A stretch of DNA of 64,000 nt from Candidatus Coatesbacteria bacterium. GTDB taxonomy: Bacteria > RBG-13-66-14 > B26-G2 > JAUVZD01. The notes beneath the pieces are model-generated. The model ran no database searches and was not told the DNA's origin. It was given only the letters and a program-made list of their open reading frames with translations. This document shows, in pieces, positions 8,263-35,296 of the stretch. Positions within the stretch are counted from its first letter, which is position 1. Each line of letters opens with the position of its first letter. The stretch is from positions 13,581 to 77,580 of the forward strand of contig JAUVZD010000007.1 of the NCBI GenBank assembly GCA_030602715.1, in the 5' to 3' direction. The translations under genes and the position numbers were made by a program.

Positions 8263-8350
8263 AAACTGATATAGATAGGCATAAAGCAAAAAAGTTAGTA
8301 AAAAACCCAAATAAGATATTTGCAAACCACAAAAATGGAGGTTGTGTAAT

Positions 8351-10198
8351 ATGTTTAACGCACAATTACGAGATAACCTTAAAGATTTCTTTGGATCAAA
8401 ATTACTTAGAGTGCCAGAGTATCAAAGACCATATGCATGGGAGAAGAAAAATTGGGAAGATGCTTATAATGACATTAAGGATGTTACAGAAGGAGGAAAC
8501 GGAGATATAGACCATTATTGGGGTACAATAACGCTTTACAAAACTAAAGAAAGAAAAGAAGAAGTAGGAAGAAAATTTACAGTCTATGAGATCATTGATG
8601 GGCAACAGCGAATTGTAACGATTATTCTATTTTTACTGGCGATTTCAAAAATTATTAAAAGTAAAAAGACACAAAAAACTATTATTAATAGTTACATCAA
8701 ACGAGGTGACAAATACCGGGTTGAGCTTGGATTAAAGGAAGATGACGATTTTTTTGATAAACTTATAAGTGGTCAAAGATGTAGAGCAACCAGGTTAAGT
8801 CAAAAAATGCTCAGAGGAGCATTAAACCATTTTTCAAATAAACTAAGAGATTGCAAACAAAAAGAAATTGAAAAAATCTATTATAGTTTAGTTGATTCTA
8901 ATATATTAGAGTTTGTTGTTCATGACAGGGTGATGTCTGTTAGGTCATTTCAGTTATTAAATGACCGTGGTAAGGATATCACTTTGATAGACAAAGTAAA
9001 AAGCACACTTTTGTATTATGTTGTCAAGTGCCTTGATAACAACGAGGATAACAACGAAGCAGAAAAATTACTTGACATCATAAATGGTGAATTTGGGGAT
9101 GTTTTTAATGGATATAGCAAAATAGTAACTGTTGGGCAGAGAAGACATATAAAATACCTTGAGCAACTATCTGAGGATGACTTCTTGAGGTTGTTTTATC
9201 ATTATTTTGGTTACTATGCATTCAAAAAATACGACGTTTGGACACAGGATGAAAATGAAGATTGGGTCGAATATGATTTTGACATTTCTGCAAAAGCTGT
9301 GATAGATTCTTTTACCAAACCAGCTTGCGAAGACCTAAAAAACCCAGAAGAAAAGCAACAACTACATGATTTTGTACTAGATTTTTCAAATATCTTTGCT
9401 GAGTGGTCTCGTTATTTTGCAAAAATGGTTAATAAAGCTAATATGAGAAAGAAAAATTATAAACTCACAAAACTTTTACGGTTTCAACAACTATCCGCAG
9501 AAACATACCCAGTAATAATAAATCTAAATTCCAAGGAAATATTAAACTATGAGATTTTGCATCTTATTGAGGTATTAGATTTCCGCGTATATAAGGTAAA
9601 TCGTGGGGACCCAATAGCAGATTTATACAGAAATTTCGTATCAAAAATAATTCTTGATAATGCTGAGAATGAATTGACGAAAAATGGACAGTTTTTGAAG
9701 GACTATATTAGTCATAAAGGGAATGATGATGATGTTGATTGGTATCTTAACCAAAAAGTATATGGCAAACCATGGGTAAGATATGTTTTATGGGAATTTA
9801 ACAAAAAGTTTAATAAAAAATTTAAAGACCTAGACGCAAAAAAATATTTTGACACAAAAAAAATACAGATAGAACATATATTCCCTAGAGGATTGTTTAA
9901 TGATGTTCCAGAAAATGAAATAAAAAAAATACTTAAGAAATATGGATTTAAAGGTTATAGCGATTACAAAGAAAGTATAAACTGTTTAGGAAACCTAGTT
10001 CTCTTTGAGTATAACCCAAAAACAAGCAATAAACACCCACAGGAAAAAGTAAAATATTACAAAAAATCAAAATTCCCTGCCGCAAAAGCGTTGGCAAAAG
10101 AGATAGAGAAAAGCGGGTTTAACAAAAAGAAGTTAGTGGAACGGACTGAAAAAATTGCAAAATTCTGCTTAAAGCGCTGGTCTATTGAACCAAAATAA
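8351..10198 (+). CDS. GmrSD-like DUF262 (ParB-like nuclease) / DUF1524 (HNH-like His-Me) protein; putative type IV modification-dependent restriction enzyme
   Basis: N-terminal PEYQRPYAWEKKNW and DGQQR motifs (DUF262). C-terminal IEHIFPRG...NCLGNLVLFEYNPKTSNKH (DUF1524 HNH-like). The gene is ~33% GC against ~58% for the flanks. The ATG at 8351 with a GGAGG SD is preferred over the track's TTG at 8342. Confidence 0.7.
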   Translation: MFNAQLRDNLKDFFGSKLLRVPEYQRPYAWEKKNWEDAYNDIKDVTEGGNGDIDHYWGTITLYKTKERKEEVGRKFTVYEIIDGQQRIVTIILFLLAISKIIKSKKTQKTIINSYIKRGDKYRVELGLKEDDDFFDKLISGQRCRATRLSQKMLRGALNHFSNKLRDCKQKEIEKIYYSLVDSNILEFVVHDRVMSVRSFQLLNDRGKDITLIDKVKSTLLYYVVKCLDNNEDNNEAEKLLDIINGEFGDVFNGYSKIVTVGQRRHIKYLEQLSEDDFLRLFYHYFGYYAFKKYDVWTQDENEDWVEYDFDISAKAVIDSFTKPACEDLKNPEEKQQLHDFVLDFSNIFAEWSRYFAKMVNKANMRKKNYKLTKLLRFQQLSAETYPVIINLNSKEILNYEILHLIEVLDFRVYKVNRGDPIADLYRNFVSKIILDNAENELTKNGQFLKDYISHKGNDDDVDWYLNQKVYGKPWVRYVLWEFNKKFNKKFKDLDAKKYFDTKKIQIEHIFPRGLFNDVPENEIKKILKKYGFKGYSDYKESINCLGNLVLFEYNPKTSNKHPQEKVKYYKKSKFPAAKALAKEIEKSGFNKKKLVERTEKIAKFCLKRWSIEPK

Positions 10199-10223: not shown

Positions 10224-11363
10224 TTGCACCCCCTTCCAAGAAATATCCTGCAAATCGCCTTAATACTTATCCTTTGCGCCCTCCCAATCATCTCCCGGGG
10301 GGGCGATTCCGCCCTCCTACTATCCCAACTGAGCATATTGGACGGTCGGGTGGGCATCGGCTTAAACTACACCTTCACTGTGGACAATGCCGAGCTTTCG
10401 CCTGTGGAACACCCCTGCCCCTACGAGAAGAGCTACATCGCCCAGGAGTTACATCCCTACCTCCGCTTCACCCTCCATAAAAGTGACGAATCGCTGATAG
10501 AACTCCGCCCCGGCTTGCGCCTGGTTCACATCATCGGCGGAGGGGTCGCCGTCCACCCCCGCATTCAGGCTGAGCTGGCAAGCACAAGCCACCACCTCCT
10601 GCTGGGTCACTTCCGTCCTGACCTCCACCCCCTCTTCCTGCACCTCAAGGCGGAGAGCGACGATTGGCCCGGCGCAGACTACACCTTCAGCAGGGGCTTC
10701 TTCGGCTTTGACCTGCTTGCCGCCCGCACCCAGATACCCGCCGACCGAACCTACGAAACCATCCCTCTGGCGGTCCGTTTGACCGCTTCCTACGGTGGAC
10801 TTTTTCAAATCTCCGCCCTGGCATCAGCCCTCCATCTGGCAGGTCATGACACCGGCGGCACCGGCTATAAACCGCCTGAGCCCTCCAAGCGAGAGTTTCT
10901 CTGCTACGGTGCGGTCGCCGATTTCTCCCTACTTCGCCCCTTCATCTCCAGCGAAGGATGGCTGAACGACATACGAGTGAACGGCGCTCTGGCATTTGGT
11001 CTGGAGCGAGGGGTGGACGGAGGTCTCGCCTGGGATGTAGGCGTGGAGTTAAGGCTATTCAGTTTTATGGGCTTTGCAAGCAACTACTACTCCCTGCAAG
11101 GGGAGTTTGTCTCCCCTCTTGCCCACGACGAACTGCGGGGCGCATCATTCTACTGGTCCAAAGGCTGGAGCTACAGCCAGCCCGGCGCCTACCCCGACCA
11201 CCGCTATCTCAATTTCATCCTCTCCGGCGGCTGGGAATTCATCGGCGCCGTATCGGTGAGCGGAAGTGTGGAGCAGGGCTATCATTTTGAGAAAGACGAC
11301 GACGGAATGCGCCGTCTATACAGCTACAATCGGTTTATCTGCTCGTTGAATATCAGCCTTTAG
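10224..11363 (+). CDS. Hypothetical secreted protein
   Basis: TTG start with an AGGAG SD. N-terminal signal peptide LQIALILILCALPIISRG. No recognised domain. Confidence 0.5.
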   Translation: MHPLPRNILQIALILILCALPIISRGGDSALLLSQLSILDGRVGIGLNYTFTVDNAELSPVEHPCPYEKSYIAQELHPYLRFTLHKSDESLIELRPGLRLVHIIGGGVAVHPRIQAELASTSHHLLLGHFRPDLHPLFLHLKAESDDWPGADYTFSRGFFGFDLLAARTQIPADRTYETIPLAVRLTASYGGLFQISALASALHLAGHDTGGTGYKPPEPSKREFLCYGAVADFSLLRPFISSEGWLNDIRVNGALAFGLERGVDGGLAWDVGVELRLFSFMGFASNYYSLQGEFVSPLAHDELRGASFYWSKGWSYSQPGAYPDHRYLNFILSGGWEFIGAVSVSGSVEQGYHFEKDDDGMRRLYSYNRFICSLNISL

Positions 11364-11521
11364 GCAAAGTTTTTGCAGATAACTCAGGTTGGTTTTGTAG
11401 CGGAGAGTTGAACTCTCCGCTACATTAATAACCCCCACCTATAAAAATACCACCCACCCACAAAAACATTGACAAGCGGGTGGGATTGACTTATTTTGGG
11501 GGAAATCAAGGGGTGTTCATC

Positions 11522-12787
11522 ATGGACATCTTCGTCTATTTTACCGATATCATCGGCTCCCGGGTCTACTCCCAAAAGGGGCGCTACCTGGGCAAGGTTA
11601 AGGACCTCATCGCCCGAAGCGAAGTCCTCTACCCATTGGTGCTCCGCTTCGTCATCCGCTCCCCCCGCTTCGGACCCCTCTTGGACCTCCCCTGGGAGGC
11701 GGTCAAGAGCCTGGGAAAAAAGAAGATACGGCTTGTCCGTGGCGGTGAGAAGAAGCTAGTCCCCCACTATCAGGACCCGGAGGAGCTGGTCCTGCGTCTG
11801 GATATCCTGGATATGCAGATTCTGGACACCGACGGTGCCAAGGTGGTGCGGGTGAACGACATCCACCTGCTCAACACGGATAAAGGGATGCGCATCGTCC
11901 ATGTGGACGTGGGCTTCCGGGGCATCCTGCGCCGACTGGGCTACACCCGTCCAGCGGATGCGCTGACCGAATGGCTCTTTTCCGCAAAATTCAAAGAACA
12001 ACTGATCGGCTGGAAATATATCGTCCCCCTGGGGGGACACTTCTCCCCCCTCAAGTTAAAGCTCTCGTTGGCACAGAGGCGTCTTGCCGAACTCCACCCC
12101 GCCGACCTGGCCGACATAATGGAGGAGCTTGCGGTGCATGAGCGGCAGGCGCTATTCTCCAGCCTGGATGTGGAGACCGCAGGCGAAGCCCTGGAGGAGA
12201 TTGACGACCCCAAACTGCAGACTGAGTTGCTCGGTGCGGTGGACGAGGAGGTGGCAAGCGACATACTGGAAGAGATGGAACCCGACGAAGCGGTGGATTT
12301 ACTCATAGACCTGCCCGAGGAGGTGACCGAGGAGTTGGTTGATGCTATGGAGGATAAGAAGCGGGCTGGTGAGTTGCGCCGACTGATGACCCACGACGAG
12401 GGAAGTGTCGGCTCCATCATGACCACCGAGTATCTGACCATCACTCCCCAGGCGACCGTCCGCCAGGTGCTTAACCTCATCCGCAAAAGCGTCAAGGATG
12501 TAGAGGATATCTACTATATATATGCGGTCACCAAGGAGGGGGAACTGCGCGGGGTGGTGTCAATCAAGGAGCTTGTTACCGCGAAGGGAACTGATATTAT
12601 CCGCAAAATCATGCACAAAAAGGTCATCTCGGTAAAGGATGACGATCCGGTCAAATTTGCCTCTGAGATACTCAGTAAATACAACTTCATAATGGTTCCA
12701 GTGGTGGATGAGGACGAGCACCTTTTAGGGGTAATCTACTGGAAGGATGCGGTGGAGGCGGTCCTTCCCAAATTCGCTGAGGATTAG
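11522..12787 (+). CDS. MgtE-like cytosolic sensor protein (PRC-barrel plus MgtE-N plus CBS pair, no membrane domain)
   Basis: An acidic MgtE_N-like helical region (LAELHPADLADIMEEL...EEMEPDEAVDLLIDLPEE) is followed by a CBS pair (MTTEYLTITPQATVRQVLNLIRK...YIYAVTKEGELRGVVSIKELV). It stops at 12787 without TM helices. The track start at 11480 is possible; the ATG at 11522 with an SD is preferred. Confidence 0.65.
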   Translation: MDIFVYFTDIIGSRVYSQKGRYLGKVKDLIARSEVLYPLVLRFVIRSPRFGPLLDLPWEAVKSLGKKKIRLVRGGEKKLVPHYQDPEELVLRLDILDMQILDTDGAKVVRVNDIHLLNTDKGMRIVHVDVGFRGILRRLGYTRPADALTEWLFSAKFKEQLIGWKYIVPLGGHFSPLKLKLSLAQRRLAELHPADLADIMEELAVHERQALFSSLDVETAGEALEEIDDPKLQTELLGAVDEEVASDILEEMEPDEAVDLLIDLPEEVTEELVDAMEDKKRAGELRRLMTHDEGSVGSIMTTEYLTITPQATVRQVLNLIRKSVKDVEDIYYIYAVTKEGELRGVVSIKELVTAKGTDIIRKIMHKKVISVKDDDPVKFASEILSKYNFIMVPVVDEDEHLLGVIYWKDAVEAVLPKFAED

Positions 12788-12789
12788 GT

Positions 12790-14100
12790 TTGAGCGATAA
12801 AGATACAGAAAGCACTCTGCAAAAAGCTCCTCTATGGTATAAACCCATCGCCTGGACCAGAAACTGGCTTCCCAGACTGCGGGGAATCTGGCTCTTTCTG
12901 GCGGTGCTTGGTCCGGGAATCATCACCTCCAGCGTGGACAACGACGCCGGAGGCATAGCCACCTACTCCATCTGCGGGGCAAGGTACGGCTACAGCCTGC
13001 TCTGGTCGCTTTTACCCATCACCATTGCCCTGATGGTCATCCAGGAGATGTGCACCCGCATGGGGGTGGTGACCGGCAAGGGTCTCTCCGACCTCATCAG
13101 GGAACGCTTCGGGGTGCGCCTGACCTTCTACCTGTTAATCGGGATGCTCATCGGCAACCTGGGAAATGTGCTGGCGGAGTTCGCCGGGGTAGCCGCCAGT
13201 ATGGAGCTGGTCGGGGTCTCCAAGTATATCTCTGTGCCCATAGCGGGGGTGGCGGTATGGCTTCTGGTCATCAAGGTCAGCCACAAACGGGTGGAAAAGG
13301 TCTTCCTCCTGGCCTGCCTGCTTTACGCCTTCTACATCATCTCCGCCTTCCTCTCCCAGCCCGACTGGGGCGAGGTGTTGACCTCCGTGGCGCGCCCCCG
13401 GATAGAGTGGGGAAGCGGATACTTCGTCATGCTAGTGGGGGTCATAGGCACCACCATCTCCCCCTGGATGCAGTTCTATCTACAATCAGCGGTGGTGGAG
13501 AAGGGCATCAAGGTGGATTATTTAAAATTCTCCCGGCTGGATACCGTGCTCGGCAGTTTCATCGTCAACATCATCGCCTTCTTCATCATCGTGGTCTGCG
13601 CCGCGACCATCTTCGTCGCCGGTCTGCCCATAGAGACGGTCAAAGACGCCGCCGTCGCCCTCAAGCCCCTGGCTGGCGACTACGCCTCCCTGCTCTACTC
13701 CTTCGGCTTGCTCAACGCCTCTCTCTTCGCCGCCTCCATCCTTCCCCTCTCCACCGCCTTCATTATCTGTGAGGGCTTCGGTTGGGAGACCGGGGTGGAC
13801 AAGAAATTCAACCAGGCGCCGCAGTTCTACACCCTCTACTCCCTGCTCATCCTCTTCGGGGTGCTCTTCATACTCATCCCCAATCTGCCTCTGCTGGATA
13901 TCATGTTCACCACCCAGGTGATAAACGGCATACTTCTCCCGGTCATCCTGGTGGTGATGCTTGTGCTCATAAATGATCGGCGGATAATGGGCGATTATGT
14001 CAACAGCACCAAGGCAAACATCGCCTCATACATCACCGTAGGCGCGGTGATAGCCATTACCTTGACTATGGTGGTCCTCGCCCTGATGGGCACAGGGTAA
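12790..14100 (+). CDS. NRAMP-family divalent cation transporter homolog with non-canonical binding-site motifs (NRMT-like, possible Mg2+ transporter)
   Basis: A TTG start is coupled to the upstream stop. TM1 has GPGIITSSVDNDAGGIATYS (DAGG in place of DPGN); TM6 has GTTISPW in place of the MPH motif. About 11 TM helices. Confidence 0.65.
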   Translation: MSDKDTESTLQKAPLWYKPIAWTRNWLPRLRGIWLFLAVLGPGIITSSVDNDAGGIATYSICGARYGYSLLWSLLPITIALMVIQEMCTRMGVVTGKGLSDLIRERFGVRLTFYLLIGMLIGNLGNVLAEFAGVAASMELVGVSKYISVPIAGVAVWLLVIKVSHKRVEKVFLLACLLYAFYIISAFLSQPDWGEVLTSVARPRIEWGSGYFVMLVGVIGTTISPWMQFYLQSAVVEKGIKVDYLKFSRLDTVLGSFIVNIIAFFIIVVCAATIFVAGLPIETVKDAAVALKPLAGDYASLLYSFGLLNASLFAASILPLSTAFIICEGFGWETGVDKKFNQAPQFYTLYSLLILFGVLFILIPNLPLLDIMFTTQVINGILLPVILVVMLVLINDRRIMGDYVNSTKANIASYITVGAVIAITLTMVVLALMGTG

Positions 14101-14178: not shown

Positions 14179-14961
14179 ATGAAAAAAGACGAACATATCT
14201 GGAAGACGGCAATCACCGACGCCCGCCCCAACTCCATCCGTTTGCGGGGCTACCGCATTGACGAGTTGATGGGGCGCATCCCTTATTCCCAGGCGGTCTT
14301 TCTGGCTTTCACCGGCAGACTGCCCAACGAGGAAGAGGGACGGTTGGTGGACGCCATCCTGGTCAGCTCCATAGACCATGGGGCTACGCCCCCCTCCACC
14401 CTGGTAGCCCGCACCGTAGCCGGCTGCGATGTTCCCCTGACCAGCGCGCTTGCCGCCGGCATCCTCTCCATCGGCAAAGCCCACGGAGGAGCGGTGGAGG
14501 GCTGTATGGAGCTCATCGGCGAGACGGTTACGATGGCGGATAAGGAAGGCGTCAGCATAGAGGAAGCCGGCCAACGCATAGTCGCCGAGGCTGAAGCCTG
14601 CGGTCGGCGTCTGCCCGGACTGGGTCACCGCTATCACACCGCCGACCCCCGCACCGCACGGCTCTTTGAGCTGGCCGAGGAGTGCAAGTTCTCCGGACGC
14701 CACATCCAGGCATTGAAGGCGATAGAGTCCGCCTTCGCCAAATCCAAGGGCAAAAAAATCCCCATCAATATTGACGGAGCTATCGCCGCCTGCCTCTGCG
14801 AGATGGGCTTCCCCAGCTCCGCCGGAAACGGCTTCTTCATCATCGCTCGCACCACAGGCTTGATAAACCATATTCTGGAGGAGTGGGCACGAGAGCCCAA
14901 GATGCGCAAGATATTCCCGGATTCGGCGGTGTATGATGGGGAGGGGGACAGGAGCTTATAG
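14179..14961 (+). CDS. Citrate synthase-like small protein (citryl-CoA lyase-like)
   Basis: 260 aa with citrate-synthase C-terminal domain motifs (SIDHGATPPSTLVARTVAGCDVP, GHRYHTADPR). Confidence 0.55.
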   Translation: MKKDEHIWKTAITDARPNSIRLRGYRIDELMGRIPYSQAVFLAFTGRLPNEEEGRLVDAILVSSIDHGATPPSTLVARTVAGCDVPLTSALAAGILSIGKAHGGAVEGCMELIGETVTMADKEGVSIEEAGQRIVAEAEACGRRLPGLGHRYHTADPRTARLFELAEECKFSGRHIQALKAIESAFAKSKGKKIPINIDGAIAACLCEMGFPSSAGNGFFIIARTTGLINHILEEWAREPKMRKIFPDSAVYDGEGDRSL

Positions 14962-16252
14962 CCCCCAACCCACCATGCCCTCACCACCCACCAGCATCAC
15001 CCTCACCAAAGACCAACAACTGGCTTTCATCCTGGAATGTCAGGGATTGGGGAAGCGTCCCAGGCGCCCGGGAAAGGCGGACATCTCCGCCCTCATAGAC
15101 CGGCTGGGCTATCTGCAGATAGACACCATACAGGCGGTTCGGCGCAGTCAATATCTGGTCCTGTGGTCCCGATTGGGCAGTTACAATGTAGAGCTGTTAC
15201 ATCAACTGGCATATAAAGACCGTGCCCTCTTTGAGGGTTACTCCCACATGCTAAGCTACATCCCTATGGCTCACTTCCCCCTCTTCTGGATTCGGCATCT
15301 GGAATATCGTAAGAAGCCCCATCCCTGGATGGAGCGGATGGTCAAGGAACTCAAGGGACTGGAGGGGGATGTGCTCTGCCAGATTAAGGAGCGAGGCGCG
15401 CACACCAGCCGGGGGTTCTCAGGGTTACCCGACATACCTGACAAGTATAGGGGGGTAACCTGGGCTTGGCGTCCCTTGCGCGTCGCCCTGGAGCATCTTT
15501 GGAATCGTGGCGAGCTTCTGATAAGCGACCGGGACAACTTCACACGCGTCTATGACCTGACCGAGCGGGTCCTGCCCTCCCCCCCACCCGAAAGCGCTCC
15601 AAGCGAAGATGAACGCAAGCGCTACATCGCCCGGACCACCCTCAAAGCCTGGGGACTAATCACCGAGCGGGACCTGGCGCAGTATGTCCTCCCCCGGGCG
15701 CTCTATGTCAAGCTGTCCAACTCCCGCATTCGTGAGAAACTTCTGCGGGAGATGATTGACCGGGGTGAGGTGGGAACTGCGCAGATGGAGGGTATGGAGG
15801 AGACATTCTACTATCTCACCGACCTGAAGCCCCAACTGGATGCCGTCCTCCGCAGAAGGAAGCCCCTGCCCGATTTTCTCACCCTCCTATCCCCCTTTGA
15901 TAATCTCATCTGTGACCGTCGGCGCACAAAACGAGTCTTCGGCGTGGACTACGCCCTGGAGGCTTACAAGCCCCCCCAACAACGACTTCGGGGCTACTTC
16001 GCCATGCCCATACTGTGGCGTGGGAGACTGGTGGGTTACATAGACCCCCGCCTGGAGCGCAAGCGAGGGGTGATTCGGGTGGACAATGCGGAGTTGGAAG
16101 GGGGATTTAAGGGCGACGATGCCTTCTATTCACATCTGGCGAAAATTCTGAGGGATTTCTTGGGATTTCATGGAGCGGAGAGGATTGAGGTGGGGAGAGC
16201 CAAGCCACCATCGCTCAAAAGGTGGCTTTCGGAGTTTAAGGATAAGATGTAG
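14933..16252 (+). CDS. Winged-helix DNA-binding protein of the YcaQ/AlkZ (DUF1006) crosslink-repair glycosylase family
   Basis: Motifs ALIDRLGYLQIDTIQAVRRSQYLVLWSRLGSY and RGYFAMPILWRGRLVGYID. The true start is uncertain; the track ORF overlaps the upstream gene. Confidence 0.5.
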   Translation: MMGRGTGAYSPQPTMPSPPTSITLTKDQQLAFILECQGLGKRPRRPGKADISALIDRLGYLQIDTIQAVRRSQYLVLWSRLGSYNVELLHQLAYKDRALFEGYSHMLSYIPMAHFPLFWIRHLEYRKKPHPWMERMVKELKGLEGDVLCQIKERGAHTSRGFSGLPDIPDKYRGVTWAWRPLRVALEHLWNRGELLISDRDNFTRVYDLTERVLPSPPPESAPSEDERKRYIARTTLKAWGLITERDLAQYVLPRALYVKLSNSRIREKLLREMIDRGEVGTAQMEGMEETFYYLTDLKPQLDAVLRRRKPLPDFLTLLSPFDNLICDRRRTKRVFGVDYALEAYKPPQQRLRGYFAMPILWRGRLVGYIDPRLERKRGVIRVDNAELEGGFKGDDAFYSHLAKILRDFLGFHGAERIEVGRAKPPSLKRWLSEFKDKM

Positions 16253-32578: not shown

Positions 32579-35296
32579 ATGATGAAAAGTTATCTGGCGA
32601 CAATTATTCTAGTTTTGTTCGCCGCCTCCTCTGCCTGGTCGGTAACCTTTGACCAAGCCACGGATATAGTCATCTCCGAGGTCTGTCTGGGCAACCTGGA
32701 GGATACCCGCCTTTCTACAATTGAAGGGATTCAGGAGCAAGGCACTATCATAAGTTCTTTCTCAGACGAAGTTATGGTGCCCTTCAACTCCTATCTCTTC
32801 ATCGTGGACCGGATGCCTGACGCCAACTGGGAGCACCCCTGCCAGTGGGTCTTTGTGGATGTAGCAAGCGGGGAGTTTGCGGTATTTGATATGTTGTCCC
32901 CACCCGGAATACTGTTGATGACAATCATCCACGAACCGCTGGATTTATCAAGTATCGGCGAATATTCCTACGAGAAGATCATTGAGCGCATCCGTGAGGA
33001 GCAGATCAAGATATTCGGGGCGGAAAGCTATGACTTTGACCACAGTCAGCTCAAAGGACAGCGCTACGCCCTGCTCATTGACGGCGGATACGCCCTTTCC
33101 AGCAACTACATCCGCTACTGGGACGATATCGCCTTCATCTACCGAGCCCTGGTCAACTACTACGGCTACGACGAGGACAACGAGATAACCGTCTGCATGT
33201 CCGACGGGGACAACCCCGCTAATGACCGCAACCGCTGGCCCTATTCCGGCTACGACAGCTCACCTACCGACCTGGACGACGACGGAGACCAGGACTATTC
33301 CCTGGACGCCACCCGCTCAACCATCCTCAGCCAACTACAATGGTTGGTTGACAACACCACCGCAGACGACCAGGTCTTCATCTTCACCACCGACCACGGG
33401 GCAAGCGACGGTAGTCTCTGCCTGTGGAATCAACAGTCCCTCTACCCCAATGAATTTGCCGACTATGTTGAAGATATGCCCGCCGAGGTGGTTATCTGCA
33501 CCTTTGAACAATGTTATTCCGGAGCCTTCCCCGACGCCCTGGCTGACGTTGAGGGCTGTATCAGTTGTTCGGCGGTGGATGCTTACCACTCCTCATACGC
33601 CATGGGTCCCGAATATCTCTTTGATACCTTCGTCTTCCATTGGACCTGTGCGGTGAACTGGGCGGAACCCGATTTTGAGGGCTACGACAGCGACCCCATT
33701 GACGCCGACGAAGACGACTCCGGCGAGGTGGAGATGGACGAAGCTTTTGACTATGCCGACTTACACGACACCGACGACTTTGGCTCTCAGTATCAGGACC
33801 CCTCCGAAATAGGCGATGTGACCACCCTCTGGGGTAACACCACCGGCATAAATATCTCCATCACCGACTGGCAGCTCACCGAGACCTCCGGCGACGGCGA
33901 CGGAATTATTGAACCCGGGGAGAGCTACGACCTCACTCCCTATCTGTATAACGGTGGGTCGGCGACCGCCACCGGGGTTGACCTGATTCTGAGCAGTGAC
34001 AGCTCCGATTTAGACATAGATACCGCCACCACTACCTGCCCGGATATCCCCCCGGATACCACCCAGCATCCATCCGTCCCCCTGGCTTTCACCATCCACG
34101 GGGATGTGGACCACAACATACACATTGACTTCAACCTCAATGTCAACACCGACGAGGGCTATGACAAAGACTTCGCCTATCAGATAGGCGTAGTAACCGA
34201 CTACGGTTTCCGTGACTTCGTGGAGAGCGGTGAGGGCTACTGGGAACATGAGGGCGACCACGACCAGTGGCATATCTCCGACACCGCATACTACAGCCCC
34301 ACTCATTGCTGGCGGTGCGGGGATACCGAAGGAACAGGCTACGACAACAATATGGACGCCCACCTCTACAGTCCGTTAATCTTCGTAACCGACGACCCAA
34401 AAGAGACCCCCTACCTCTCCTTCTGGCACCAGTGGGGTATGTATTCAAGTTCCGACGAGTGCTATCTGTTGATTGATGACGGCAGTGGCTTTGTGGAGCT
34501 GGACAACTTCACCGGCGACAGCGGCTCCAACTGGGAAGAGGAGACCTACGACTTGACCGCATACACCGACACTCTGGTTCAGCTGGATTTCAACATGGTA
34601 ACCAACGCTTCGGGGAACGACGAACTGGGCTGGAATGTGGACAACATCATCGTGACCCCCAATCCGTATGTCGGTATAAACGTCTATAACTTCATCACCC
34701 TCTGCGAGGACGGGAAAGTCATCGTCACCTGGCAGTCTCTTGAGGACGTGGGGATAATCGGCTTCAACCTCTATCGCCGAGAGGCAAGCGATACCCTCAA
34801 CCAGAAAACCAATCTCACCGCTTCTCCTGAGGGAATGAACAGCCCGGCAAGTATAATCAACGACTGGCAGAAGCTGAACCAGTCCTTGATTACCGGCACA
34901 AATCCCTATCACTTCGTAGATGAGGATGTAATCCTGGACGTTACCTACCAATACCGTCTGGAAGCGGTCTATGGCGACCACAGCCAGAATGAAGCCGGCT
35001 CCACCATCACCGTTCAGGACCAGACCCAGCCCTTCAGTTATCATCTGGCGCAGAGTTATCCCAACCCCACCACTGGACACCTGACCATAGAATACGCCAT
35101 TCCGGAGAGCGGTGCGGTCTCCCTCAAGGTCTATAACCTGAGCGGTCAGTTGATAGACATTCTGGTTGATGAGCACCAACTGCCCGGCATCTACTCGGTA
35201 AAATGGAACGCCCGGGACCTGGCAAGCGGAGTTTATATCTACACCCTCTCCGCCGGCAATTTCCTCAGCTCCAAGAGACTGGTCTTAAGCAAGTAG
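32579..35296 (+). CDS. Secreted legumain-like (peptidase C13 / clan CD) protease with a type IX secretion C-terminal sorting domain
   Basis: Signal peptide. A His motif VFIFTTDHGASDGSL and a Cys motif VVICTFEQCYSGAF resemble legumain DHG / EACESG. The last ~85 aa match the T9SS type-A CTD (SYPNPTTGHLTIEYAIPESGAVSLKVYNLSGQLIDIL...SGVYIYTL). Confidence 0.7.
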   Translation: MMKSYLATIILVLFAASSAWSVTFDQATDIVISEVCLGNLEDTRLSTIEGIQEQGTIISSFSDEVMVPFNSYLFIVDRMPDANWEHPCQWVFVDVASGEFAVFDMLSPPGILLMTIIHEPLDLSSIGEYSYEKIIERIREEQIKIFGAESYDFDHSQLKGQRYALLIDGGYALSSNYIRYWDDIAFIYRALVNYYGYDEDNEITVCMSDGDNPANDRNRWPYSGYDSSPTDLDDDGDQDYSLDATRSTILSQLQWLVDNTTADDQVFIFTTDHGASDGSLCLWNQQSLYPNEFADYVEDMPAEVVICTFEQCYSGAFPDALADVEGCISCSAVDAYHSSYAMGPEYLFDTFVFHWTCAVNWAEPDFEGYDSDPIDADEDDSGEVEMDEAFDYADLHDTDDFGSQYQDPSEIGDVTTLWGNTTGINISITDWQLTETSGDGDGIIEPGESYDLTPYLYNGGSATATGVDLILSSDSSDLDIDTATTTCPDIPPDTTQHPSVPLAFTIHGDVDHNIHIDFNLNVNTDEGYDKDFAYQIGVVTDYGFRDFVESGEGYWEHEGDHDQWHISDTAYYSPTHCWRCGDTEGTGYDNNMDAHLYSPLIFVTDDPKETPYLSFWHQWGMYSSSDECYLLIDDGSGFVELDNFTGDSGSNWEEETYDLTAYTDTLVQLDFNMVTNASGNDELGWNVDNIIVTPNPYVGINVYNFITLCEDGKVIVTWQSLEDVGIIGFNLYRREASDTLNQKTNLTASPEGMNSPASIINDWQKLNQSLITGTNPYHFVDEDVILDVTYQYRLEAVYGDHSQNEAGSTITVQDQTQPFSYHLAQSYPNPTTGHLTIEYAIPESGAVSLKVYNLSGQLIDILVDEHQLPGIYSVKWNARDLASGVYIYTLSAGNFLSSKRLVLSK

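Follow-up and report, generated by a model that had tools for sequence, protein, structure and literature searches.

A 64,000-nucleotide (nt) stretch of the Candidatus Coatesbacteria contig JAUVZD010000007.1 (assembly GCA_030602715.1; the whole of this stretch is referred to as the window) carries on its forward strand two adjacent genes that are read here as a self-contained, two-gene Mg2+-uptake operon of the nrmT type. Gene 1 (open reading frame (ORF) 11480–12787) encodes a soluble protein related to the cytosolic part of the MgtE channel, and gene 2 (12790–14100) a 436-amino acid (aa) NRAMP-related Mg2+ transporter (NRMT). The overall reading, in which gene 1 is most likely a Mg2+-sensing and probably ATP-sensing brake, is held with moderate confidence, and its parts are not equally secure. 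The identity of the pair is close to certain; inhibitory gating of the transporter by its partner has at best an even chance, with the physical contact and the direction of regulation both presumed. The operon type has already been published (Shin et al., 2014; PMC4072509), and the locus in the window is a further example of it, a rediscovery. What is added here, from structure models, is that about 40% of the partner is a conserved tandem PRC barrel, so that it is more than a fragment of MgtE.

Gene 2 matches the Pfam Nramp profile (PF01566) with an E value of 4.4e-100. Its best match in the PDB is the NRMT of Eggerthella lenta (EleNRMT; 7qia; E 5e-123, 415 bits, compared with 112 bits for DraNramp), to which it aligns without gaps over 404 aa at 47.8% identity. 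The metal-site motif of transmembrane helix 1 (TM1), canonically DPGN, is D52-A53-G54-G55 (12943–12954, + strand), equivalent to EleNRMT D55 to G58, and the corresponding motif of TM6, located by the same alignment, is G220-T221-T222-I223-S224-P225-W226 (13447–13467, +). Measured against canonical DPGN and A-x-x-M-P-H, Asn has been replaced by Gly, Ala by Thr, Met by Ser, and His by Trp. Among 71 paired homologues, DAGG is found in 67 and GTTIAPW, with Ala at the Met position, in 64; GTTISPW occurs just once, and the Ser at the canonical Met position (S224) is rare among relatives.

The residues probed by mutagenesis in EleNRMT are all retained. D55 and Q379, both mutated there, correspond to D52 and Q376 of the window protein; G58, which stands for the canonical Asn, to G55; and T224, needed for Mg2+ transport, to T221. 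This set accounts for the Mg2+ selectivity of EleNRMT, in which transport is not proton-coupled, and the T224A mutation abolishes Mg2+ transport (Ramanadane et al., 2022; PMC8806188). A fifth position, E133, was highlighted in EleNRMT and never mutated; it corresponds to E130. At the canonical Met position gene 2 has Ser (S224) where EleNRMT has Ala (A227). The first of the two alpha6b His positions is Trp in both (W226, EleNRMT W229), and the second is Leu in gene 2 (L231) but Asn in EleNRMT (N234). Neither W226 nor L231 is able to carry a proton, so that among the proton-pathway residues examined these two are changed while E130 in TM3 and Q376 in TM10 are kept, as in an NRMT. With canonical MntH/Nramp proteins (DraNramp, ScaDMT, EcoDMT) gene 2 shares the Pfam family, the LeuT fold, the TM1 Asp and the TM10 Gln. 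The Asn, the Met and both alpha6b His residues of those proteins are all replaced, and soft-metal selectivity and proton coupling are therefore not expected.

By every sequence criterion applied, gene 2 is a member of the NRMT clade of the SLC11 family: it has the SLC11 fold and scores closer to EleNRMT than to MntH, TM1 has DAGG, and TM6 has the Thr together with a small residue in place of Met. The initial annotation had proposed an NRMT-type NRAMP protein with replaced metal motifs, and the alignment to EleNRMT (PMC8806188) bears this out; intact Mn2+-site residues elsewhere in the protein were looked for and none were found, the gapless alignment presenting an NRMT-type metal site. From homology, gene 2 is predicted to carry hydrated Mg2+ without proton coupling and to let Mn2+ through too, as EleNRMT does (PMC8806188); its substrate and its lack of proton coupling are both deduced in this way.

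The reading frame of gene 1 can be opened at GTG 11480, but ATG 11522 is the more likely true start. The GTG falls within a promoter-like site described below, while three homologues (P0002, P0003 and P0004) share the Met-Asp start at ATG 11522, and an AAGGGG ribosome-binding site precedes it by 8 nt. The GTG was dropped on these grounds, and all residues of gene 1 are numbered from the ATG. The predicted product (11522–12787, +) is a soluble 421-aa protein with the domain order PRC-PRC-MgtE_N-CBS-CBS, referred to here as the NRMT-associated MgtE-like partner. Pfam identifies PRC (E 6.5e-8), MgtE_N (5.8e-23) and two CBS domains (1.1e-20); the MgtE membrane domain (PF01769) is not among its matches. 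No membrane segment is apparent, with a peak 19-residue Kyte-Doolittle hydropathy of 1.05, and the match to TIGR00400 reaches only 149 bits against a cut-off of 232.75, covering just positions 21–258 of the 450 in the profile. An MgtE channel is excluded by this combination of missing PF01769, missing hydrophobic segment and sub-threshold TIGR00400 score.

The MgtE-like part consists of a helical MgtE_N domain (aa 187–290; 12080–12391, +), with E222, D255 and D259 as ligand equivalents, and a CBS pair (aa 291–415; 12392–12766, +), with Y332, K349, E350, F389, D409 and E412. By sequence, residues ~185–420 match the MgtE cytosolic domain 2yvy with an E value of 2e-30. An AlphaFold2 model of gene 1 (mean predicted local distance difference test score (pLDDT) 87) superimposes on the same structure with a Foldseek template modelling score (TM-score) of 0.83 and a root-mean-square deviation of 2.4 Å. 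The protein ends about four residues past the CBS pair, at the point where full-length relatives enter the plug helix. It had initially been described as the N domain and CBS pair of MgtE without a pore, and Pfam, the sequence and fold matches to 2yvy, and hydropathy all agree with that description. Compared with the Thermus thermophilus MgtE channel (2YVX/2ZY9/5X9H), the N domain and CBS pair show homology at the level of both sequence and fold, but gene 1 has neither the plug helix nor the five-helix pore, and it has in addition an N-terminal tandem PRC barrel of 185 aa. Whereas MgtE regulates its own pore, any action of gene 1 would be in trans, on a transporter with an unrelated fold.

Residues 1–172 are, on the evidence of structure models, a tandem PRC barrel. 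Barrel 1 (aa 1–85; 11522–11776, +) is a beta-barrel in the models and is also detected by Pfam when run as a fragment (E 3.2e-7; 30.7 bits, over the cut-off of 21.2). Barrel 2 (aa 86–172; 11777–12037, +), which has a two-helix insert, is marginal by sequence (Pfam PRC E 0.15) and is assigned from the structure model. A separate model of aa 1–183 (pLDDT 85, predicted TM-score 0.80) was compared with known structures by Foldseek. The top match was the archaeal pair CdpB1/CdpB2 (8qzo; also 8ONW), covering both barrels over ~140 columns with an E value of 3e-6, and reaction-centre H subunits and RimM came next. At 21–23% identity the likeness to CdpB1/CdpB2 is one of fold only, and these are cell-division proteins without MgtE or CBS domains, unlike gene 1. 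In 138 distinct partner sequences, barrel 2 and MgtE_N tie as the most conserved domain. Twenty-four residues are at least 97% invariant across phyla, and 11 of these are in barrel 2 (D97, Q99, D102, R110, N112, D113, G131, G134, R137, R138 and W164). The literature search found no paper joining PRC barrels with MgtE and CBS domains.

The same domain order is also found in full-length channels. These PRC-MgtE proteins, ~600–680 aa long, make up 19 of the top 150 cluster representatives matching gene 1, in addition to a Ktedonobacterales example (locus L080, 3908–5938) that has no NRMT neighbour; others are P0178, P0188 and P0192. They align with gene 1 over all 415 aa at ~35% identity, and ten residues (G20, G24, D28, P38, Q99, D102, G105, D113, R137 and W164) are invariant in partners and channels alike. 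Unlike gene 1, the channels continue through a plug-helix-like EExxED segment into the membrane domain PF01769. Sequence comparison suggests that they are a sister group of the partners, which would have arisen by loss of the pore, or else the channels by fusion. No description of a full-length PRC-MgtE subfamily was found in the searchable literature.

Metal and nucleotide ligands of the T. thermophilus channel (TtMgtE) were carried onto gene 1 through a HMMER alignment, with conservation counted in the 138 partners; ligand identities were taken from Maruyama et al. (2018; PMC5882242) for Mg2+ and Tomita et al. (2017; PMC5529423) for ATP. The Mg7 ligand E59 corresponds to E222 (Glu or Asp in 117), and the Mg6 ligand D95 to D259 (Asp in 136, Glu in 2). 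For Mg5, D250 is matched by E412 (Glu in 60, Asp in 39), while D226 is replaced by N388, with loss of that ligand. Among the ATP ligands, Y170 corresponds to Y332 (Tyr in 122), R187 to K349 (Arg or Lys in 132), D188 to E350 (Asp in 63, Glu in 15), and F227 to F389 (Phe in 76, Leu in 48). The two Mg4 ligands, D91 and D247, are D255 and D409 in the window protein (codons at 12284–12286 and 12746–12748), and these positions covary: 80 partners, like this one, have Asp at both, 47 have Ser with Ser or Asn, and 11 are mixed, in a count that ignores shared ancestry. The pattern is consistent with a site of two residues that partners either retain or lose together, although shared ancestry could also yield it, and a whole subclade of partners seems, from these residues, to have lost the Mg4 site. 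With the Mg4, Mg6 and Mg7 ligands and most of the ATP ligands kept, the protein fits a predicted Mg2+/ATP sensor.

The association of the two genes was examined from both sides. For the partner, one genome per species was scanned, giving 80 loci (75 informative) from Zixibacteria, Aminicenantes, Thermodesulfobacteriota, Geobacteraceae, Myxococcota, Planctomycetota and others. An NRMT with 50–67% identity lies immediately downstream on the same strand in 69 of them and upstream in two, making 71 of the 75 informative loci. The remainder comprises five loci cut by contig ends, two orphans, one with no NRMT within 1.3 kilobases (kb), and one in which the partner is fused to an MgtE pore. Starting from the NRMT, 80 loci in metagenomes (again 75 informative) were scanned: the partner is upstream in 72 and adjacent on the opposite strand in two, for 74 of 75, with five loci lacking room and one without a partner within 1.3 kb. 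Not all arrangements are identical. In two loci (L130 and L146) the partner is 3' of the NRMT on the opposite strand, and in three (L137, L138 and L150) ~1.1–1.5 kb, likely an extra gene, separates the two. The genes on either side of the pair are not the same in the window as in relatives that are 98% (L083) and 65% (L081) identical, and the pair is therefore a self-contained module. Its recurrence in ~150 other loci, with long ORFs and strong family matches, is far beyond chance, and the expectation that both genes would be conserved together in other genomes was borne out.

These distributions also bear on whether gene 1 could be a decaying, functionless fragment of a split MgtE that has come to lie beside an NRAMP gene by chance. 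Its missing pore would be in keeping with such an origin, but the homologues number 558 cluster representatives (E<=1e-30) and more than 2600 matches, all with intact frames, the 24 near-invariant residues extend across phyla, the structural model is confident, and linkage to NRMT genes is 95–99% from both sides. Conservation on this scale refutes the idea, which is barely conceivable. The closest relatives of gene 1 are on metagenome contigs, at 98%, 70% and 65% identity, while the best matches in species genomes, from Eisenbacteria, Zixibacteria and Aminicenantes, are ~45% identical. Together with a type IX secretion sorting domain encoded farther along the window (32579–35296), these matches hint at an uncultured source bacterium within or close to the FCB group.

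Close relatives of the crystallised transporter have the partner as well. On Eggerthellaceae contigs, NRMTs 91–93% identical to the crystallised EleNRMT construct follow a partner gene by 3–4 nt (pairs at 2644–5296 in L164 and 2645–5416 in L166). The partner there is a 450-aa protein with PRC, MgtE_N and CBS domains, and shares 31% identity with gene 1 across 420 aa. The crystallised transporter has thus been characterised without its natural neighbour. In Ramanadane et al. (2022; PMC8806188), MgtE is named solely as an unrelated Mg2+ channel, and the terms "CBS", "operon" and "accessory" are absent. EleNRMT (7QIA/7QIC) and gene 2 share DAGG, T221, Q376, E130 and the alpha6b His-to-Trp change (window numbering).

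Both ORFs are present where they were initially annotated on the + strand, and the tight junction reported between them is also there. Just 2 nt separate the TAG of gene 1 (12785–12787) from TTG 12790, which is the sole start codon in the gene 2 frame past an in-frame upstream stop. The GAGGA ribosome-binding site of gene 2 (12779–12783, +) lies within the final codons of gene 1 (A-E-D-stop). The 65%-identical relative has the same F-A-E-D-stop/GAGGA junction, but with ATG rather than TTG, 3 nt after the stop, and gaps of 2–4 nt are also found in the 98%-identical relative and both Eggerthellaceae pairs. The close spacing and embedded ribosome-binding site suggest that this is a translational-coupling junction and that the two proteins are made together.

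Upstream, a sigma-70-like promoter candidate, TTGACA-N17-TATTTT (11469–11497, +), agrees with the consensus at 10 of 12 positions; this is a consensus match only. The leader predicted from it would be just ~20 nt long, which leaves no space for a riboswitch. At gathering thresholds, Rfam finds no M-box or other riboswitch in the entire window, and at E<=10 no family, the M-box included, matches within 11200–11700; a riboswitch upstream of gene 1 was ruled out on these negatives and the short leader. The sole above-threshold Rfam match in the window is a tRNA gene at 1325–1398 (−). Between the promoter-like site and the preceding ORF is a perfect 11-bp hairpin (11397–11423), GTAGCGGAGAG-TTGAA-CTCTCCGCTAC, with no T-run after it, which could be either a terminator or a repeat element.

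An M-box is a frequent though not universal companion of NrmT-associated partners, and the locus in the window does not have one. It is not a defining feature, since the member of the family from A. capsulatum is also without one. Among 16 related loci sampled, an M-box (RF00380, 131 bits) was found only in Pelotalea chapellei DSM 13688 (L071, 3750–3915), directly upstream of its pair; the two Eggerthellaceae pairs have none. As a sequence match, the P. chapellei element is an independent tie between this family and Mg2+.

The scarcity of M-boxes, here and in 15 of the 16 relatives, could also be taken to mean that the pair is mainly an importer of Mn2+, or of Mn2+ and Mg2+ together, with a partner that senses Mn2+ or some other signal. 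The member from A. capsulatum, where the partner is present and a riboswitch is not, gave full rescue of a mutant in Mn2+ uptake and weak rescue of Mg2+ uptake, according to the passages of Shin et al. (2014; PMC4072509) drawn on here, and Mn2+ transport by EleNRMT points the same way. Such a role is nevertheless unlikely. Every residue on which the Mg2+ activity of EleNRMT depends is present in gene 2, T221 in particular; the soft-ligand Met has become Ser, a hard oxygen ligand; the partner retains the Mg2+ ligands of MgtE; and a relative with 60% NRMT identity sits under an M-box.

Several features of the operon can be compared with those in Shin et al. (2014; PMC4072509), again as given in the passages drawn on here. 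That paper named NrmT and found that the C. acetobutylicum genes rescue Mg2+ uptake. A gene for an MgtE cytoplasmic domain adjoins most nrmT genes, often under an M-box, and in the operons CA_C0685/CA_C3329 and ACP_2976/ACP_2977 it lies immediately upstream of the Nramp-related gene, as here. Many of those operons are under an M-box, in contrast to the locus in the window, and the C. acetobutylicum partner is two split genes where the present one is a single gene. The partner is worded there as a protein of small size that shows homology with MgtE's N-terminal cytoplasmic domain, with cytoplasmic feedback regulation or a chaperone function as its speculated roles. A PRC barrel is not mentioned in these passages, in which the term "PRC" itself was not searched for. 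No work after 2014 on the function of the NRMT partner was found in the literature search.

The preferred reading of the pair as a braked Mg2+ importer would run as follows. Transcription from the sigma-70-like site would produce a short leader without a riboswitch, and coupled translation would yield both proteins together. The NRMT would bring in Mg2+, driven by membrane potential and without proton coupling. As cytosolic Mg2+ rises, along with ATP, the N domain of the partner would clamp the CBS pair much as in MgtE, and the clamped partner would then dock on the cytoplasmic face of the NRMT, possibly through its PRC barrels or its C-terminal P-[ED]-F tail, and slow or block transport. At about -150 mV, a divalent uniporter could accumulate Mg2+ roughly 10^5-fold. 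CorA and MgtE both have cytosolic Mg2+ brakes, and an NRMT itself is devoid of any cytosolic domain; the brake role is suggested by this capacity for accumulation in a transporter without a brake. In its most specific form, the regulatory half of MgtE would have separated from its pore and been put to new use as a Mg2+/ATP-sensing gate on an NRMT, with PRC barrel 2 as the docking or effector module, an arrangement that can be put forward only tentatively.

A number of observations weigh against this kind of gating. Gene 1 has no plug helix, the element through which MgtE relays the signal to its pore, and of the Mg5 ligands one is gone (D226 to N388). In B. subtilis, NrmT functions with no partner present, and when the A. 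capsulatum partner was co-expressed with its transporter the rescue of Mg2+ uptake did not change, the transporter of that species rescuing Mn2+ uptake better than Mg2+ uptake, as described in passages of Shin et al. (2014; PMC4072509). The readout of that co-expression was rescue, to which an inhibitor would be invisible; for MgtE, it was a sensitivity assay that brought the loss of regulation to light. EleNRMT likewise functions alone in proteoliposomes (PMC8806188). No natural fusion of a partner to an NRMT was found among ~160 loci, the top 120 matches or the top 150 representatives, and the long forms of the partner that were found are fusions to an MgtE pore instead. Finally, the PRC tandem is common to the full-length PRC-MgtE channels, and its candidacy as an adaptor specific to NRMTs is weakened by this.

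The partner might then have some role other than an inhibitory gate, as an activator, a factor in assembly or stability, or a metal chaperone or buffer at the cytoplasmic exit. Chaperone activity is the alternative raised by Shin et al. in the passages drawn on (2014; PMC4072509), and several Mg2+ ions are bound by the acidic MgtE_N domain. Translational coupling suggests that the two proteins are produced in stoichiometric amounts, and PRC barrels serve widely as modules for protein-protein contact, CdpB, RimM and the reaction-centre H subunit being examples; both would be compatible with a non-gating role. Transporters of this clade act alone in vivo and in vitro, however, and the partner is therefore dispensable for activity and assembly, while in MgtE the N domain and CBS pair are a Mg2+-dependent closing device (PMC5882242, PMC5529423). 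Roles of this kind are, on balance, rather improbable.

If the partner does gate the NRMT, the published in vitro view of NRMTs as unregulated, passive transporters would be incomplete, since Eggerthellaceae genes of the EleNRMT type carry the same partner. Gating in trans would also provide a clear example of one sensor module serving transporters whose folds are unrelated. What stops a passive Mg2+ uniporter without a cytosolic domain from overloading the cell has been a question since 2014; it is now easier to test, with a near-universal partner, retained ligands, a constrained PRC tandem, and fused PRC-MgtE proteins for comparison.

The genes surrounding the pair are of mixed character. 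Directly upstream is a 379-aa ORF (10224–11363, +) that has no match in Pfam and an N terminus resembling a signal peptide, and which is not conserved beside the pair in the 65%-identical relative. Before it is a gene for a 618-aa GmrSD-type restriction endonuclease (GmrSD_N and GmrSD_C; 8342–10198, +), with 34% G+C compared to ~54% around it, probably a horizontally acquired defence gene. Downstream, 14179–14961 (+) encodes a 260-aa citrate synthase C-terminal domain alone, citryl-CoA-lyase-like in size, whose 3' end shares 29 nt with a gene for an AlkZ-like DNA glycosylase (14933–16252, +). In the 98%-identical relative, an additional minus-strand gene lies between the NRMT and citrate-synthase-like genes. 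Farther along the window, 32579–35296 (+) encodes a 905-aa Peptidase_C13 protein with a type IX secretion C-terminal sorting domain.

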